Positions 5,663-31,995 of a stretch of 64,000 bases of DNA are shown in pieces. A program made the translations under genes and the position numbers. Where the stretch lies: the NCBI GenBank assembly GCA_965213675.1, contig OZ243916.1, forward strand, positions 2,208,001-2,272,000, read 5' to 3'. A model generated the notes under the pieces. That model was not told the origin of the DNA. It saw only the letters and a list, made by a program, of their open reading frames with translations, and ran no database searches. The DNA comes from an uncultured Candidatus Binatia bacterium (lineage in GTDB: Bacteria; Desulfobacterota; Binatia; UBA9968; JAJDTQ01). Position 1 is the stretch's first letter, and each line of letters opens with the position of its first letter.

Positions 5663-6897
5663 GCCCTCACCTTGCTCATGCCCTCGCTGTCTTCGATCAG
5701 CGAAGCGTGCAGCGCATCCACGGCCCTGTGACTGTCCGCCTCGTTCACCACCACCGACACCTTGATCTCAGAGGTCGAAATCATCTCGATGTTGATGGAC
5801 TGGTCGGCCAGCGCCTTGAACATTTTCGCCGCCACGCCCGCGTTGGTTCGCACACCCACGCCCACCACCGACACCTTGGCCACGCGGGTGTCGGCGGCCA
5901 CTCCCTTAGCTTGGATCAAGGAGGCGGTTTTTTCAATCAATTCCATGGCCTTGGGATGGTCCTTCCTGGGCACGGTGAAGGTGACGTCCGTCGTGCCGTC
6001 CTCGCTGGCGTTCTGGATGATCATGTCCACGACGATGTTGGCGTCCGCGATGGGACCGAAGATCTGGGCCGCGAGGCCGGCACGGTCCGGCACGCCGCGG
6101 ATGGTGATCTTGGCTTCGTCGTTGTCACAGGTCACTGCCGAAACCAGAACCGAATCCATCTGTTCTTCCTCCTCGACCAGCCAGGTGCCGTCCACATCGC
6201 TGAAACTCGAGCGCAGGTGGACCGGGACGCCGAAGTTCTTCGCCGTCTCCACCGAACGGATCTGCAGCACGCGGGCGCCCATGCTGGCCATCTCCAGCAT
6301 CTCGTCGCAGGTGATGCGCTCCAGCTTCCGCGCGCGCGGGCACACAAAGGGATCGGCGGTATAGATCCCGTCCACGTCCGTGTAGATCTCGCACACCGCC
6401 GCGTTCAGGGCCGCGGCCATGGCCACGGCGCTCGTGTCCGAGCCGCCGCGCCCCAGGGTGGTGATGTTGTCGTCCTCGTCCACCCCCTGAAAACCCGCCA
6501 CCACCACCACTTCGTTGTGCTTGAGCGACTCCAGCACACGGGTGGCGTCGATGCTCTTGATGCGCGCGCGGCCGTACACGCTGTCGGTGGCGATGCGCAC
6601 CTGGTGCCCGAGAAACGAGCGCGCCGGCTGCCCCAGCTCCTTGAGCGCCAGCGCCAGCAGCGCGCACGACACCTGCTCGCCCGACGCCAGGAGCACGTCG
6701 ATCTCCCGGTCGTCCACGTGCGCCGAGACCTGGTTGGCCAGGTTCAGCAGGCGGTTGGTCTCGCCGGACATGGCCGACACCACCACCACCACGTCGTTCC
6801 CGGCTTCGCGGGTGGCCGCCACGCGCCTGGCGACGTTGCGGATGCGTTCCACCATGCCGACGGAGGTGCCGCCGTATTTCTGCACGATCAGTGCCAT
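5659..6897 (-). CDS. lysC: Aspartate kinase
   Basis: [32 protein letters not shown], two ACT domains (STSEIKVS). Confidence 0.95.
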
Positions 6898-14271: not shown

Positions 14272-15810
14272 TCAACAAGAACGCGGAGCGGCCCGGTCTC
14301 CCGCAGGCAACGGGAGGACCTTGATGCGCCACGCCGCGCGGCTGTCGGGCTCCAGCCTGGCGAAGTCGCCGCGCGCGCATCCGGGAATCCACACGATCTC
14401 CTCCCCGGCCAGCAACAACGGCAAGGTACGGCGATGGGAACGTGGCAGCTTCTTTTCGATGAACAGGTCCTTGAGCTTCTTGCGGCCCACCATGCCCAGG
14501 GGCCGGAAGCGGTCGCCGGGGCGGAAGTTGCGCACCCGGAGCGTGCCCGGGATCCGTTCCACGACGCGGAGGTCGAAGGCGGCCTCGAAGGGGCTTTCCG
14601 GGAGCTCCACGCTGTCCGAGCGCCATGTGGTGACCTTCACACCGGCCTGGGGCAGGAGGAGTTCGCCCTCGAGGGACAGGGGATGTGAGACATCTTCGCG
14701 TTCGCGCCTCTTGACCAGGCGTGTGTCCGCAACGCGGGAGACCAGCCGGACCCATTCGTACTCCCGCACCACGGTCCAGCCGCCAGGGAGGGAGACGCGG
14801 GCGTGGGGACGGGTACCGGCGATGAGGTTCAGGACGGCTTCGACATGCGCGTGGCCGGTACGCCGAAGCGTCCCCAGGACGCGGCCGAGCCAGAACCGCA
14901 CCAGCCGCGGGCGCAGCTCGGGCTCGATCCCGAGGAACGCGGCCCGGTCCAGCACATCCTCGCGGCTGACCCGCGGGTAGGCATTGGCGACCCACCGCTC
15001 CAGCAGGACGTTGTCGGAACGCAGCAGCCCGCCCAAGCGGGCAAGGCGGTCCTCGAGCCCACCTCCCGCCCGCGCCCGCAACTCCGGCAGCAGGCTCCCG
15101 CGGATCCAGTTCCGCAGGAAGCGGGGGTCGCGGTTGGTGGGGTCCTCCCGGTACGCGAGCTTCCGGCGCGCCAGATAGGCCAGAATCTCGTTGCGGGGAA
15201 CCTCCAGCAAGGGACGGATCAGCCACGGACCCCTTGCGCCGGCCGCGTCCCGATCCAGCGGCCGCGCCGCGGGCATGCCCGCAAGCCCTTCGGGTCCGCA
15301 GCCCCGGAGCAGCCACATCAGCATGGTCTCCACCTGATCGCCGCGGTTGTGTCCCACAGCGACCTTGCCGAGGCGGCGCTCCGCCGCCACCCGCGCGAAG
15401 AAGCGGTAGCGTTGCGCGCGCGCGCGGGCCTCCAGGTTTCCTGCGCGTCCCTGTCCCGCTCGGGCTTCCCGGTCTCCGGCGCGCGCTTCAGGGGCATCGG
15501 CGGCACCCGGGTTGTCCGCTTCGGGGTATTCGGCGCCCGGCAAGTCCAGGTGAGTGAGATGAAACGGCAGCGACAGGCCCTCCGCCATGCGCCGGACGAA
15601 CACCGCGTCCTGCCGGCTCTCGGCCCCGCGAATACCGTGCTCCACGTGGGCGACTTCCAGGGAGAGTGCAAGGGCCGGGGCCAGTTCCGTCAGAACGTGG
15701 AGCAGCGCCACGGAGTCCGGTCCGCCGGAAACGCCCACGAGCACCGCGTCGCCAGGGGCCAGGATGTCCTCCCTGAGCAAGGTCTGCATGAGTTTCTGGT
15801 CATGTTCCAT
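14272..15810 (-). CDS. tilS: tRNA(Ile)-lysidine synthase
   Basis: SGGPDS PP-loop, LEARAR...RY, HNRGDQVET, IRPLL, RNWIR, C-terminal KKLKDLF; upstream of ftsH. Confidence 0.92.
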   Translation of the reverse strand: MEHDQKLMQTLLREDILAPGDAVLVGVSGGPDSVALLHVLTELAPALALSLEVAHVEHGIRGAESRQDAVFVRRMAEGLSLPFHLTHLDLPGAEYPEADNPGAADAPEARAGDREARAGQGRAGNLEARARAQRYRFFARVAAERRLGKVAVGHNRGDQVETMLMWLLRGCGPEGLAGMPAARPLDRDAAGARGPWLIRPLLEVPRNEILAYLARRKLAYREDPTNRDPRFLRNWIRGSLLPELRARAGGGLEDRLARLGGLLRSDNVLLERWVANAYPRVSREDVLDRAAFLGIEPELRPRLVRFWLGRVLGTLRRTGHAHVEAVLNLIAGTRPHARVSLPGGWTVVREYEWVRLVSRVADTRLVKRREREDVSHPLSLEGELLLPQAGVKVTTWRSDSVELPESPFEAAFDLRVVERIPGTLRVRNFRPGDRFRPLGMVGRKKLKDLFIEKKLPRSHRRTLPLLLAGEEIVWIPGCARGDFARLEPDSRAAWRIKVLPLPAGDRAAPRSC

Positions 15811-28146: not shown

Positions 28147-28250
28147 TGAAAGGGATCCTCGGGGTCAACTGGATGCGTCGTGTCCCGCCCATTCCTGCCA
28201 GCCGGGGTTCGTGAATGCAACCGGGACCAAAACTCACGGGAGGAACACGC

Positions 28251-28997
28251 ATGGCCGATGCCTTGGGATGGCGCCGCAAGTTCGCCGTCATCGCTCCTTC
28301 AACCAATACGTCCGTGCAGCCCGAGTTCGACGACATGCGGCCGGAGGGCGTGACCAACCACTTCGCGCGCATCTGGATACCCGACGATCCCATTCACGAC
28401 GACGCGGATTTCGAGCAGCTCATGCGCAACATCCGCGCCGAGGTGGACAACGCCATCGACCGGGCCATGACCTGCCGGCCGGACTACCTGGTCATGGGCA
28501 TGTCCTCGGAAACGTTCTGGGACGGCGCCGAGGGCAGCCGGCGCCTGCTGGCGAACGTCGAGGAACGGGCCGGGGTCCGTGTGGCCATGGGATCCTACGC
28601 CTGCGAGGCAGCCCTGGAGGCGTACGGCGGCATCCGGCGGCTCGGGGTGATCACGCCGTACATGCCCGTGGGCGACGCCCAGGTGGTGCGCTTCTTCACC
28701 GACTGCGGCTACGAGGTGGCGCGGCTCAAGGGGCTCAAGTGCGAGAGTCCGGTCCTGATCGCCCACGTGCAGGCGGACACGCTGGAGGCCGCCATCACCG
28801 AGGTGGACGGCGACGGCGTGGACGCGGTGGTGCAGGTGGGCACCAACCTGGCCATGGCCCGTGTCGCGGCGGCGGCGGAACAACGTCTCGGCAAGCCGGT
28901 CATCGCCATCAACACGGCCATCTACTGGTACGCGCTGCGCCAGAATGGGTTGTCGGACAAGGTCGAGGGGTTCGGCAACCTGCTGGCGCGGTTTTGA
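28251..28997 (+). CDS. Maleate isomerase/arylmalonate decarboxylase (Asp/Glu racemase fold) family protein
   Basis: IAPSTNTSVQPEF, GVITPY, GTNL, LGKPVIAIN; SD GGGAGG. Confidence 0.8.
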   Translation: MADALGWRRKFAVIAPSTNTSVQPEFDDMRPEGVTNHFARIWIPDDPIHDDADFEQLMRNIRAEVDNAIDRAMTCRPDYLVMGMSSETFWDGAEGSRRLLANVEERAGVRVAMGSYACEAALEAYGGIRRLGVITPYMPVGDAQVVRFFTDCGYEVARLKGLKCESPVLIAHVQADTLEAAITEVDGDGVDAVVQVGTNLAMARVAAAAEQRLGKPVIAINTAIYWYALRQNGLSDKVEGFGNLLARF

Positions 28998-29076
28998 GCA
29001 TTCTCTGATCGGCGGCGGTCACGCCTGGGAGCTTGCGCCGCAGCCACGGACGGCCCGACTGAGAAAGGAACCACAC

Positions 29077-29871
29077 GTGGACTTGACGGTTTATCGCGTT
29101 CCCTCGTGGACCACCGCGCAGCCGGGACTGAGGCACGGCTTCGTGGGCCGGAACGGCGGCAACAGCGCGGGCGCGTACGCGAGCCTCAACGTGTCGTTCA
29201 ACGTGGGCGACGACCCGCGGGCGGTCAAGGACAACTATTGCGCCATGAAGGGCGCCGTGGGCATGACCGGAACACGGATGGTCACCATGCGGCAACGGCA
29301 CGGCGACACCATCCTGGACGTGGCCGAACCGTGCAAGGAGGCCGGCGAGGGCGACGCCATGGTGACGGATGCGCCGGGAGTGTTTCTCGGGGTCCTCACC
29401 GCCGACTGCGTACCCATCGTGTGCTGGGCGCGCACCTCGGACCGCAAGCTGGCGGCGGTGGTCCATGCGGGTTGGCGCGGAGCCCTGGCGGGCGTGGCCA
29501 TGAAGACGGTGCGGCACATCGAGCACCGCTACGGCGTGCCGCCCCAGAGTCTTCACTGCGCCCTGGGGCCGGCCATCGGACCATGCTGCTACGAGATCGG
29601 CGCGGACGTCGCCGTCCCGCTGGTGCGGGAGTGGGGCCAAATGGCGGAGGCCGCGCTTCAATCCAGGGACGGCGGCACGTATCTCCACCTGAGACGGCTG
29701 AACGCGGCCCTGCTGGCGGCGGCCGGAGTCCCCGGCGAACGCATCGTTTCCACCGGCCCCTGCACCGCGTGCAGCCCGGCGGAGTTCTTCTCCCATCGCC
29801 GTGAATCGAAGAGAGGCGCCAGCGCCACTGGACGGCAGACCGGTTTCATCGGTTGGCCGGATATGCCTTGA
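29077..29871 (+). CDS. pgeF: YfiH/PgeF family (peptidoglycan editing factor/purine nucleoside phosphorylase)
   Basis: HGF, QRHG, TADCVP, HAGWRG, GPAIGPCCYE, FFSHRR. Confidence 0.9.
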   Translation: MDLTVYRVPSWTTAQPGLRHGFVGRNGGNSAGAYASLNVSFNVGDDPRAVKDNYCAMKGAVGMTGTRMVTMRQRHGDTILDVAEPCKEAGEGDAMVTDAPGVFLGVLTADCVPIVCWARTSDRKLAAVVHAGWRGALAGVAMKTVRHIEHRYGVPPQSLHCALGPAIGPCCYEIGADVAVPLVREWGQMAEAALQSRDGGTYLHLRRLNAALLAAAGVPGERIVSTGPCTACSPAEFFSHRRESKRGASATGRQTGFIGWPDMP

Positions 29872-29893
29872 GTCGGATGCGGAGGGAGGGGGA

Positions 29894-29933
29894 GAAACAG
29901 AAAGCCCTGGCTGACGCATGGCCAGCCAGGGCT
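29894..29933 (-). terminator. Intrinsic terminator of the small minus-strand transcript
   Basis: 11-bp perfect stem AGCCCTGGCTG/CAGCCAGGGCT (29903-29933), followed on the minus strand by TTCTGTTTC. Confidence 0.75.
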
Positions 29934-29986
29934 CGGCGTACTGTCGGAATTGACCAAGACCCTCAATTCCGAATTGGCTCGAGAGC

Positions 29987-30025
29987 CTAGGTCTCAGTCA
30001 CCTCGCAGCTACATATGTCATTCAT
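29987..30025 (-). CDS. 12-aa small ORF MNDICSCEVTET
   Basis: ATG AAT GAC ATA TGT AGC TGC GAG GTG ACT GAG ACC TAG, preceded by AGAAAGGAGGTGGTC, with its own promoter and terminator. Confidence 0.6.
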   Translation of the reverse strand: MNDICSCEVTET

Positions 30026-30056
30026 ATTTTGACCACCTCCTTTCTCTGCTGGACCC

Positions 30057-30085
30057 ATCCTAGGGCAGCGAAGCCCATTTGTCAA
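30057..30085 (-). promoter_or_regulatory. Sigma70 promoter TTGACA-N17-TAGGAT
   Basis: Consensus -35 at 30085-30080, 17-nt spacer, -10 at 30062-30057. Confidence 0.7.
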
Positions 30086-30913: not shown

Positions 30914-31738
30914 TCAACGCGCCTGAAACGAACCGATCACCCCGCGCAGGCGGCCCGGGAAATCCGTGATGATGCCGTCCACGCCGAGGGCCAGGAGTTC
31001 GGCCATCTCGCCAGGGTCGTTGATGGTCCACACGTGCACCTCGACGCCGAGGGCGTGGGCGGCGGCCAGGGACGCGGGCGTGACGAGATCGAGGCCTTCG
31101 TGCCGGCGCGGGATCTGGAGCGCCCGGCCCGGGATCTCCGGCGGCGCCTGTCCCGACCACAGCGCGGTCATGAGAGCACGGATCTCACCGCCGGAGAAAC
31201 CCGTGGCCACGGACAGGCCGCGCTCGCGGATGACCGCGCGGGCGGAACCCATGGCGGCGTCGCCCTCCGCGGCCACCAGCACCTGCGGCGCCTTGTCGAA
31301 CTCCTCGATGAGATCAAACAACACGCCCATGGCCGGCCCCGGCAGTTCCTTGATCTCCACCGTGGCCGCGGCGTGGGGAAATTCCACGAAGAACTCCCGC
31401 AGGGTGGGTATGCGAACGTCCTGTCCGCGGAACGGATGCGTCGAGCCGCCATCGGCGGTGAATCGGTACCCGGCGTCGAGCCGCTGCAGCGCTCCCAGAC
31501 CCATTTCCCGCACCGCGCCGGCGCCGTCGGTGGTGCGCTCCACCGTCGCGTCGTGAATGATGACGATCTCGCCGTCGCGGGTGGCGTGGATGTCCATCTC
31601 GAGGCAGGTCGCCCCTTCCTCCAGCGCACGGCGGAAGGACACCAGGGTATTTTCCGGCGCGGTTCCGGCGGCGCCGCGATGGCCGGCGATGCGCGGCGGA
31701 GCGCCGGCGAAGAACGCGTGTGGCGTGGGCTGGGTCAT
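30914..31738 (-). CDS. Glycerophosphodiester phosphodiesterase
   Basis: GHRGAAG.APENTL, LEMDI, HDATVERTT, IPTL, EIK, WTIND, GIITDFP. Confidence 0.92.
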   Translation of the reverse strand: MTQPTPHAFFAGAPPRIAGHRGAAGTAPENTLVSFRRALEEGATCLEMDIHATRDGEIVIIHDATVERTTDGAGAVREMGLGALQRLDAGYRFTADGGSTHPFRGQDVRIPTLREFFVEFPHAAATVEIKELPGPAMGVLFDLIEEFDKAPQVLVAAEGDAAMGSARAVIRERGLSVATGFSGGEIRALMTALWSGQAPPEIPGRALQIPRRHEGLDLVTPASLAAAHALGVEVHVWTINDPGEMAELLALGVDGIITDFPGRLRGVIGSFQAR

Positions 31739-31780
31739 GGTTCGGGTGTCTTTCGGAACCGGCGGAGCGTGCCGCGTTCC

Positions 31781-31809
31781 TTGTGTTTTCGCCTTGTGGA
31801 ATCTATGAT
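31781..31809 (+). promoter_or_regulatory. Putative sigma70 promoter of the carboxylase operon
   Basis: TTGTGT-N17-TATGAT about 190 nt upstream of ATG 31996. Confidence 0.45.
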
Positions 31810-31995
31810 CCCCTGGATTTGGGATCCTCGCGGCCGTGTGCCGCTGGGAACCCTCGGTGTGGATCACTGATAACCGCGGTGCCCCTCCCGGGTCAAACAC
31901 GCAGTCCCGAAGGGAAGTCGCGAGCCGCAGGACACGGCGCGCCCGACCCACGGGACGCACCGCCCATCACGGGACGTACCGCGCAAAGGAAGTCG

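Follow-up and report, generated by a model that had tools for sequence, protein, structure and literature searches.

A Binatia homologue of the actinobacterial small RNA Ms_IGR-5 that may act as a ribosome-loaded RNA

We analyzed a stretch of 64,000 nucleotides (contig OZ243916.1 of assembly GCA_965213675.1, positions 2,208,001 to 2,272,000 of the forward strand; hereafter referred to as the window) from an uncultured Candidatus Binatia bacterium, whose 4.53-Mb metagenome-assembled genome (MAG) is 97.7% complete with 8% contamination. Between a HEAT-repeat gene (30883-30206, minus strand) and a convergent PgeF/Cu-oxidase_4 gene (28861-29871, plus strand) lies a minus-strand element with a G+C content of 0.51-0.54 (versus ~0.70 in the flanks), which is almost certainly an autonomous single-copy gene with a strong promoter that encodes a terminated, structured RNA of ~155 nt, homologous to the actinobacterial small RNA (sRNA) Ms_IGR-5. 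The original prediction, made by a model from the letters alone, had proposed a self-contained transcription unit in an AT-richer patch at this place, comprising a TTGACA-N17-TAGGAT promoter, a ribosome site complementary to the 16S rRNA tail, a 12-codon open reading frame (ORF), a 10-bp hairpin and a terminator. When the letters of the minus strand were read directly, all of these features were found where they had been placed, including the promoter (30085-30057) and the hairpin (29972-29944); the terminator is also present, with a computed stem of 14 bp at 29934-29902 (11 bp at 29903-29933 in the original prediction). The features are as follows, in the order of transcription.

30057..30085, minus strand: sigma-70-type promoter, TTGACA (30085-30080), 17-nt spacer and TAGGAT (30062-30057), with 10 of 12 consensus matches.
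30050..30051, minus strand: predicted 5' end of the RNA, 6-7 nt past the -10 box (position 1 of the Rfam model aligns to 30050).
30046..30049, minus strand: 5' strand of the predicted leader helix P0, GCAG (RNAalifold on Binatia copies and a fixed-register test).
30031..30045, minus strand: 15-nt complement of the 16S rRNA 3' tail, an extended Shine-Dalgarno (SD) sequence, AGAAAGGAGGTGGTC (letters and tail comparison).
29987..30025, minus strand: 12-codon ORF MNDICSCEVTET plus TAG, with its ATG at 30025 (letters).
30005..30008, minus strand: 3' strand of P0, CUGC, overlapping codons 6-7 (Ser-Cys; RNAalifold and fixed-register test).
29999..30004, minus strand: SD-like word GAGGUG (codons Glu-Val), 9 nt ahead of the stop, invariant in 28 of 28 model-based copies.
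29995..30002, minus strand: 5' strand of the predicted long-range helix P1, GGUGACUG, in codons 8-11 (unaided RNAalifold and covariation test).
29944..29972, minus strand: predicted hairpin P2 of 10 bp (29972-29963 with 29953-29944), whose 3' strand is the conserved AAUUCC word (letters).
29935..29943, minus strand: 3' strand of P1, CAGUACGCC, with A29939 bulged (RNAalifold and covariation test).
29892..29934, minus strand: computed intrinsic terminator, a 14-bp stem (29934-29902) followed by the U-rich tail TCTGTTTCTC.

The promoter is the sole promoter-like site within 1 kb (shuffled sequence, mean 0.1), and the predicted fold of the RNA is more stable than that of shuffled sequences (-69.1 versus -50.8 kcal/mol, z = -4.2; 0 of 200 shuffles folded as well). 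One copy per genome was found in 39 of the 41 genomes of the window's order (RF02471 model, E <= 0.01), the two genomes without a match being 97% (G032) and 87% (G040) complete. A promoter of the form TTGACN-N17/18-TANNNT was kept in all 30 copies extracted from this order, with 14-16 nt between the -10 box and AAGGAGG in every one. The recurrence of the complete unit as a single copy (39 of 41 genomes) and its fixed promoter spacing (30 of 30 copies) lie far beyond chance and bear out the self-contained transcription unit of the original prediction. By inspection, a G+C-rich hairpin followed by a T run also stands behind the element in other clades.

We then compared 2 kb with all 4227 Rfam families in a permissive scan, which returned one notable match, RF02471 (Ms_IGR-5, "Actinobacteria sRNA"), aligning 29895-30050 of the minus strand end to end with model positions 1-184. 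The score was 33.1 bits (E = 2.5e-5 in the 2-kb scan and 1.4e-5 over the whole genome), the best RF02471 match in the genome, and 14 control genomes contained no match at E <= 0.01. Because 33.1 bits lies below the gathering score of 45 bits, we filed the element as a homologue outside Rfam's present boundary and not as a curated member. Two other copies of the same order exceeded the gathering score (58.1 and 46.7 bits; 2 of 41 genomes). The original prediction had regarded an Rfam match to an already described family as evidence against it, and this applies in part, the match to Ms_IGR-5 being full-length. A joint covariance model (hereafter R1), built from 65 diverse actinobacterial, Binatia and Rokubacteria copies, scored the window copy at 88 bits and the Mycobacterium triplex copy at 104.3 bits, the same M. 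triplex copy reaching 174.9 bits on RF02471. Sequences used for training match R1 by construction; two copies from outside the training set, in the own-class genome G078 and on the scaffold MT835602.1, scored 54.7 and 61.4 bits, respectively. Two weaker RF02471 matches were rejected as members, R1 finding nothing at either: a second one in the window's genome (17.8 bits, E = 0.136) and one inside an apparent ABC-ATPase gene of G176 (23.7 bits).

Ms_IGR-5 members above the cut-off have the same architecture as the window copy, with a leader, a 16S-tail complement and an in-frame mini-ORF that ends 9 nt past GAGGUG, and they also have in common with it the P0 and P1 helices, the AAUUCC word and the terminator; both are single-copy and intergenic. 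The window copy differs in its length (~155 nt versus a 184-position model), its middle hairpin, its ATG start (versus the frequent TTG of Ms_IGR-5) and its genus-specific C-x-C, and it lies outside Actinomycetota, in a Binatia-type MAG, unlike the curated Ms_IGR-5. Ms_IGR-5 was reportedly first described by Li et al. in the journal RNA in 2013. No function for it is described in the searchable literature, which leaves out most subscription papers. The available portions of publications naming Ms_IGR-5 in this literature, which does not cover the founding paper, mention neither the ORF nor the 16S complement nor the helices, and two reviews of mycobacterial sRNAs do not mention IGR-5. Nothing relevant was returned, as far as the indexed text extends, by a literature search for conserved actinobacterial sRNAs with small ORFs. 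A candidate reached through guessed sRNA names, Mycobacterium tuberculosis MTS0823 (between Rv1051c and Rv1052), proved to be an unrelated locus. The kind of element is already known as Ms_IGR-5, and what appears to be new is its occurrence outside Actinomycetota, together with the recognition of a frame-conserved but sequence-free mini-ORF, of a 16S complement of at least 15 nt and of two helices that overlap the ORF.

To describe the distribution of the element, species-representative genomes were scanned for the pattern AAGGAGGTG, 20-35 nt, TGYGAGGTG, 9 nt and TAG, which gave at least 115 loci, and all 115 inspected share the same design. Among the matches listed, those in Actinomycetota were from Mycobacterium, Mycolicibacterium, Nocardia, Gordonia, Streptomyces, Kitasatospora, Saccharopolyspora, Nocardiopsis and Propionibacteriaceae, and those elsewhere were from Binatia, Rokubacteria/Methylomirabilota, MAGs labelled Deltaproteobacteria, Syntrophobacter(ales) and Thermodesulfobacteriota, one Ignavibacteriales-labelled MAG, one Gammaproteobacteria-labelled MAG (L089) and unnamed bacteria (MAG labels as deposited). 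Across 151 genomes drawn from the window's phylum, strong R1 matches were confined to the window's own class (the window, G183, G150 and G078), and a further own-class genome in this draw (G116) had no strong match. Five R1 matches in other classes (~20 bits and ~45-50 nt each) were taken as ordinary strong ribosome sites; the alignment examined, from L166, covers the SD and start region alone. For Actinomycetota, to which M. triplex belongs, an even draw gave a match at E <= 1e-5 in 73 of 151 genomes, one of the 73 with two copies and the others with one. The count is 67 of 145 without the unpublished genomes G213, G315, G196, G243, G277 and G283, which enter this tally but contributed no sequence to the analysis.

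The element was essentially absent from plasmid and phage collections: the window copy had no plasmid match, and the mycobacterial copy had just two matches, to a 2.66-Mb Nocardia record entered as a plasmid and to an unverified "Bacteriophage sp." scaffold. A scaffold so labelled, MT835602.1 (UNVERIFIED, from human faeces; L201 = 15123-15678), carries a complete family member at 247-367 (61.4 bits on R1) with the peptide MISDRTCEVARR, a TGA stop, a promoter-like sequence of its own upstream and a G+C content of 63% across the match. The record is without annotation, and the scaffold looks like actinobacterial rather than phage DNA.

The single 16S gene detected in the window's genome ends GGATCACCTCCTTTCT, and the RNA can therefore pair with the tail over 15 nt with one G-U, as the original prediction had deduced from the usual end of 16S genes. 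Among 15,293 GGAGG sites on both strands of the genome, the window element has the longest contiguous tail pairing (15), exceeded only by the antisense strand of the 16S gene itself (16) and followed by six sites at 14. Across 147 copies, 115 of them from the pattern scan (among the matches listed), the complement spans 15-23 nt with a mode of 17 (69 copies) when G-U pairs are counted; these lengths were computed against the window's 16S end, assumed for all genomes, and the pattern forced nine of the complement's bases in the 115. Complements of 23 nt, found in L036, L050 and L052 (Rokubacteria-/Binatia-type; positions 401-462), run through the start codon into the 3' strand of helix 45 and could be a relic of an antisense-rDNA origin or functional. 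The same RNA also contains a second, sometimes a third, SD-like word. The third one was seen in L033, L083, L141 and similar copies (Rokubacteria-type and other Binatia), where a repeat of GGUGAUC directly precedes UGUGAGGUG (peptide ...TVICEV...) and the final letters of the ORF, CCUCCUAG, resemble the anti-SD itself.

The mini-ORF keeps its frame and geometry across these copies. An in-frame start (ATG, GTG or TTG) stands 5-14 nt past GGAGG in 97 of 98 unique pattern loci among the matches listed, compared with 3 and 9 in the other two frames; the pattern imposed no start codon, but imposed the Cys, GAGGTG and TAG. Peptides are 11-15 residues long, with 12 residues in 87 of the 115 listed matches, and genus-level changes in length are whole codons (MSDICSCEVTET versus MSDICCEVTET). 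A less biased sample of 28 copies, consisting of the 27 best R1 loci of the Actinomycetota draw (two from flagged genomes omitted) and G078, had GAGGTG in 28 of 28 and a stop exactly 9 nt behind it in 27 of 28 (TAG 22, TAA 3, TGA 2), with ATG, GTG or TTG in frame in 17. The original prediction had looked to homologues for a conserved frame and SD, and both are kept. The residue before Glu-Val is variable in these 28 copies (Arg 17, Cys 5, Leu 3, His 1, Glu 1, Val 1), and the C-x-C motif is confined to the window's genus. Frame and geometry are thus conserved and the peptide is not, beyond E-V, and these sole invariant residues coincide with the SD-like word GAGGUG. Two residues before the variable one, W, R or G is encoded by NGG codons, which amounts to conservation of GG at the RNA level. 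We also noted a start-stop pair, ATG-TAG, in another frame inside the mini-ORF (30014-30009, minus strand), and ATGTAGC is retained in genus copies of the C-S-C form.

Further support for conservation at the RNA level came from two covarying helices that overlap the ORF. For P1, RNAalifold run unaided on the 65-sequence alignment predicted only four pairs, each with compensatory changes, which link the bases past GGUG to the segment just before the terminator; the same helix was returned from the Binatia copies alone. The full helix of 10-11 pairs was paired in 78.3% of cells versus 67.8% in shuffles (0 of 500), and its covariation score was 0.274 versus 0.121 (0 of 500), with six slid registers at 0.108 or below. 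The duplex-energy test gave modest support (-18.4 versus -16.6 kcal/mol; 33 of 41 classes), and one proposed pair, 78-164, was dropped because it never pairs. In the window, P1 joins 30002-29995 with 29943-29935. In P0, a four-base leader segment whose end lies 5 nt ahead of GGAGG pairs with the bases that immediately precede GAG (GCAG with CUGC in the window). With the register held fixed (shift 0 or -1), full pairing was seen in 37 of 61 unique pairs, compared with a permuted mean of 21.3 and maximum of 31 (0 of 2000 reached 37), whereas a run-length test allowing any register did not discriminate (4.25 versus 3.90). At least 12 compensatory helix types were found for P0, including CACA/UGUG, GCAG/CUGC, CACG/CGUG, CGCG/CGCG, CGAG/CUCG, CCAG/CUGG, CCAC/GUGG, CGUG/CACG, CUUC/GAAG, CGCA/UGCG and GCAU/AUGC. 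Because of this pairing, the "Cys" codon changes its identity and its wobble base varies with the leader. The original prediction had proposed looking for codon-level conservation and hairpin covariation. On the codon side, Asp3 and Cys5 change only synonymously within the genus (GAT/GAC, TGT/TGC), but the Cys codon covaries with the leader and the last codons with their P1 partner; on the hairpin side, one P2 pair alternates between GC (8) and AU (7) among the genera of Binatia. A GUCC/GGAC hairpin at the start codon was paired in 69.3%, the same as in shuffles, without covariation, and both of its sides hardly vary. Comparison of the copies shows that P0 closes a loop of ~40 nt displaying the 16S complement, the start codon and the first codons; P1, in which GGUG plus the five or six bases behind it (the last codons) are paired, follows one or two bases later and encloses the P2 hairpin domain.

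Homologues in Actinomycetota offer expression and ribosome data. Ms_IGR-5 is listed as RNA-seq-validated in Streptomyces lividans (PMC8079986, Table 2) and as a separate sRNA transcription unit in Streptomyces avermitilis, one of two with an Rfam match (PMC8780764), and significant ribosomal reads are reported on the Ms_IGR-5 homologue of Mycobacterium abscessus and Mycobacterium smegmatis (PMC4974804). For the M. abscessus homologue ncMab10731 (164 nt, mapped transcription start site 736030, which lies 2 nt ahead of the Rfam match), sheet 4 of supplement 2 in PMC4974804 gives 70.3 reads per kilobase per million mapped reads (RPKM) by RNA-seq and 3736.6 RPKM by ribosome profiling, so that footprints are ~53 times the RNA reads. 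RNA-seq/footprint values on the same sheet are 10836/865 for 6C, 1794/490 for the signal recognition particle RNA and 31841/73 for the RNase P RNA, with footprint-to-RNA ratios below 1. Supplement 5 of PMC4974804 further lists Ms_IGR5 as increased after 1 h of erythromycin (log fold change 2.67, false discovery rate 2.2e-5; the sheet was assigned to this drug from part numbers, and the drug's summary counts one differentially expressed non-coding RNA) and after kanamycin (log fold change 1.14, false discovery rate 4.2e-7), with no further occurrences in this supplement. The footprint values in these supplementary sheets fit the engagement of ribosomes by the RNA that the original prediction had put forward.

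Together, these findings suggest that the RNA probably works through ribosome occupancy and not through its tiny peptide, and the best overall explanation, to which we assign a probability of about 45%, is a ribosome-loaded RNA whose occupancy is the signal. The extended SD would capture a 30S subunit a few bases from the extreme 5' end, and the frame of 11-15 codons is likely translated. A translating ribosome would have to melt both P0 and P1, and on terminating it could pair its anti-SD once more with GAGGUG. This word lies 9 nt ahead of the stop, and its gap to the last sense codon equals a normal SD-to-start spacing. A bound or stalled ribosome would shield the 5' end from RNase J, for which the genome contains two full-length matches (569.9 and 568.5 bits versus a 400-bit cut-off; G000:C1:3962248-3963882 and G000:C17:13863-15497) that, lying on different contigs, may be a true duplicate or a reflection of the 8% contamination. 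On the hbs mRNA of Bacillus subtilis, initiating ribosomes at a strong SD have been reported to block RNase J1 (PMC5737220). Occupancy would also prevent the 3' strand of P1 and the P2 domain from pairing, so that the amount and the conformation of the RNA would both report the state of translation, and the RNA is a tentative candidate for a sensor of translation stress or translation capacity. More speculatively, and in our view with rather low likelihood, the element could be a cross-phylum ribosome-docking riboregulator, in which the looped 15-23-nt 16S complement captures a ribosome, the fixed-geometry mini-ORF holds it, the terminating ribosome re-pairs via the second SD-like word 9 nt before the stop, and the occupied or stalled state opens the two covarying helices and stabilizes and activates the RNA; it would then act in trans to sense either the supply of free ribosomes or ribosome-targeting antibiotics, and would be shared by Actinomycetota, Binatia and Methylomirabilota.

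Several observations weigh against this explanation. The frame is broken in G210, where 8 nt separate GAGGTG from the stop, and CUG is the only in-frame start in 10 of the 28 model-based copies, all actinobacterial and of one clade. Rokubacteria-type leaders do not fit the tested P0 register, and the GGAGG-to-start spacing of 10-12 nt in 105 of 115 copies among the matches listed is long, unless the 3' extension of the duplex is counted. With respect to the homologue data, the authors of PMC4974804 caution that sedimented ribonucleoproteins can yield footprints on non-coding RNAs; a non-translating 30S subunit parked on the extended SD could give the same signal, and the induction by erythromycin and kanamycin could be transcriptional. 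In the window's own lineage, three RNA-library runs from one sponge-metagenome study contained contigs of 362-391 nt that are 95-99% alike over 29894-30051; these contigs belong to a close relative and run on into unlike sequence that includes the relative's promoter region, which indicates presence only and not transcription. The element's flanks had no cover in these three runs, which says nothing of expression given that the contigs come from a relative with other flanks, and a fourth run, which is nearly identical along the entire stretch, may be source DNA. Finally, the sensor step is one that we infer.

We next weighed other roles for the RNA, beginning with gene neighbourhoods. In the window's genus, the element lies between the PgeF and HEAT-repeat genes, within a block (Amdase-PgeF-element-HEAT-GDPD) that is syntenic across the genus and that includes, in the window, an arylmalonate-decarboxylase-like gene (28215-28997, plus strand) and a glycerophosphodiester phosphodiesterase gene (30914-31960, minus strand). 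A cis-acting leader that controls a neighbouring gene, as in leader-peptide attenuation, would agree with the pairing between the 3' part of the short ORF and a segment beside the terminator, and with the HEAT-repeat gene usually adjoining the element in the order. We nevertheless regard such a role as very improbable, as a conserved, regulated gene downstream on the same strand was not found: the next downstream gene in the window is convergent, all 30 own-order copies carry a promoter of their own, and in G010 the whole element is inverted relative to both the PgeF and HEAT-repeat neighbours (L161, G010:C1:3808800-3820800; element at 5940-5995, plus strand), which suggests that the small gene flipped locally by itself. 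A different family of the order has the element convergent with the HEAT gene. Neighbours also differ between phyla, the element standing behind an aminotransferase-IV gene near purM in M. triplex and between genes for a PrsW protease and a TPR/AAA regulator in Kitasatospora, and in the own-class genome G183 it stands between a gene of no assigned function and an aldehyde dehydrogenase gene. Neighbourhoods compared across the genus, the order and the phyla revealed no conserved cis partner or modifying gene beside the element. A role for the encoded peptide itself, as a metal or redox ligand, as a product acting in the ribosome tunnel or, as the original prediction had also suggested for an abundant acidic CSC peptide, as a modification substrate, with the RNA structure tuning its synthesis, would explain why the ORF is kept open with start and stop, why Asp3 and Cys5 change only synonymously in the genus, why all four ACN codons occur at the Thr that precedes the variable residue, and why Binatia and several actinobacteria have similar peptides (e.g., MNDICSCEVTET versus MNDFWTCEVTAS). 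We consider this improbable, because the C-x-C is genus-specific, the codons covary as RNA helices and no modifying or partner genes are conserved nearby: the residue before E-V (C, R, L, H, E or V) varies together with the 5' leader, the W/R/G position conserves GG in the RNA, the last three residues covary with their P1 partner, and the invariant E-V coincides with GAGGUG. Nor does the element look like a precursor of a ribosomally synthesized and post-translationally modified peptide or another conserved micropeptide, given a core that varies beyond E-V and neighbours that are unrelated housekeeping-type genes. The peptide words are not described in the searchable literature.

A translation-independent RNA that binds the 16S tail or the 30S subunit has more in its favour, although we still think it unlikely. 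Its complement would pair with the tail in free 30S subunits or their precursors and titrate, park or protect them, with the ORF being secondary. This would account for a complement beyond the needs of initiation (minimum 15, mode 17 and maximum 23 nt among the matches listed, reaching the 3' strand of helix 45 in three copies), for its being the longest such site in the genome, for its display in a loop closed by a covarying helix, for the second and sometimes third SD-like word and for the very high footprint density listed for the homologue. However, pure docking has no need of the frame, which is kept in its starts (97 of 98 among the matches listed), whole-codon length changes and stops (27 of 28); one RNA per 30S subunit would require a very high copy number, whereas the level listed for M. 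abscessus is modest (70.3 RPKM); and the complement lengths rest on the window's tail being assumed for all genomes.

The preferred explanation, a ribosome-loaded RNA with occupancy as the signal, also has counterparts in known systems. Inducible resistance genes of the erm and cat types have ribosome-stalling leader ORFs, and erythromycin stabilizes the ermC mRNA. Like these leaders, the element has a very short ORF behind a strong SD near the 5' end, with its 3' part in alternative helices, and its M. abscessus homologue is listed as rising after erythromycin and kanamycin; unlike them, it is free-standing, without a regulated downstream gene or conserved neighbours, stops at a terminator of its own and occurs as a conserved gene in several phyla. 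The STAB-SD of cryIIIA is a 5' stabilizer made of a strong SD. The element resembles this stabilizer and that of hbs in its near-perfect 16S complement a few bases from the 5' end, in a host that encodes RNase J, and differs in that its SD precedes a conserved, correctly spaced ORF and sits in covarying helices, with no long coding part to protect. Dual-function sRNAs such as SgrS/SgrT, RNAIII/hld and SR1/SR1P encode peptides whose sequence is conserved and active. The element is likewise a small, independently transcribed, structured RNA with a short ORF (the translation of which we infer in the window), but its peptide is not conserved beyond E-V.

Overall, the same gene as a long-listed Rfam orphan sRNA exists well outside Actinomycetota, and it is present in about half of an even draw of that phylum. 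Its distant copies expose a consistent design, with a 16S complement of 15 nt or more at the 5' end, a mini-ORF that conserves its frame but not its sequence and two covarying helices that a translating ribosome would have to open. Should the proposed mechanism prove wrong, the element still illustrates cleanly that what looks like codon conservation, here synonymous Cys changes, can be RNA covariation. Joined to this design, the footprint density and two-drug induction listed for the M. abscessus homologue provide a concrete and testable hypothesis for a widespread orphan sRNA.

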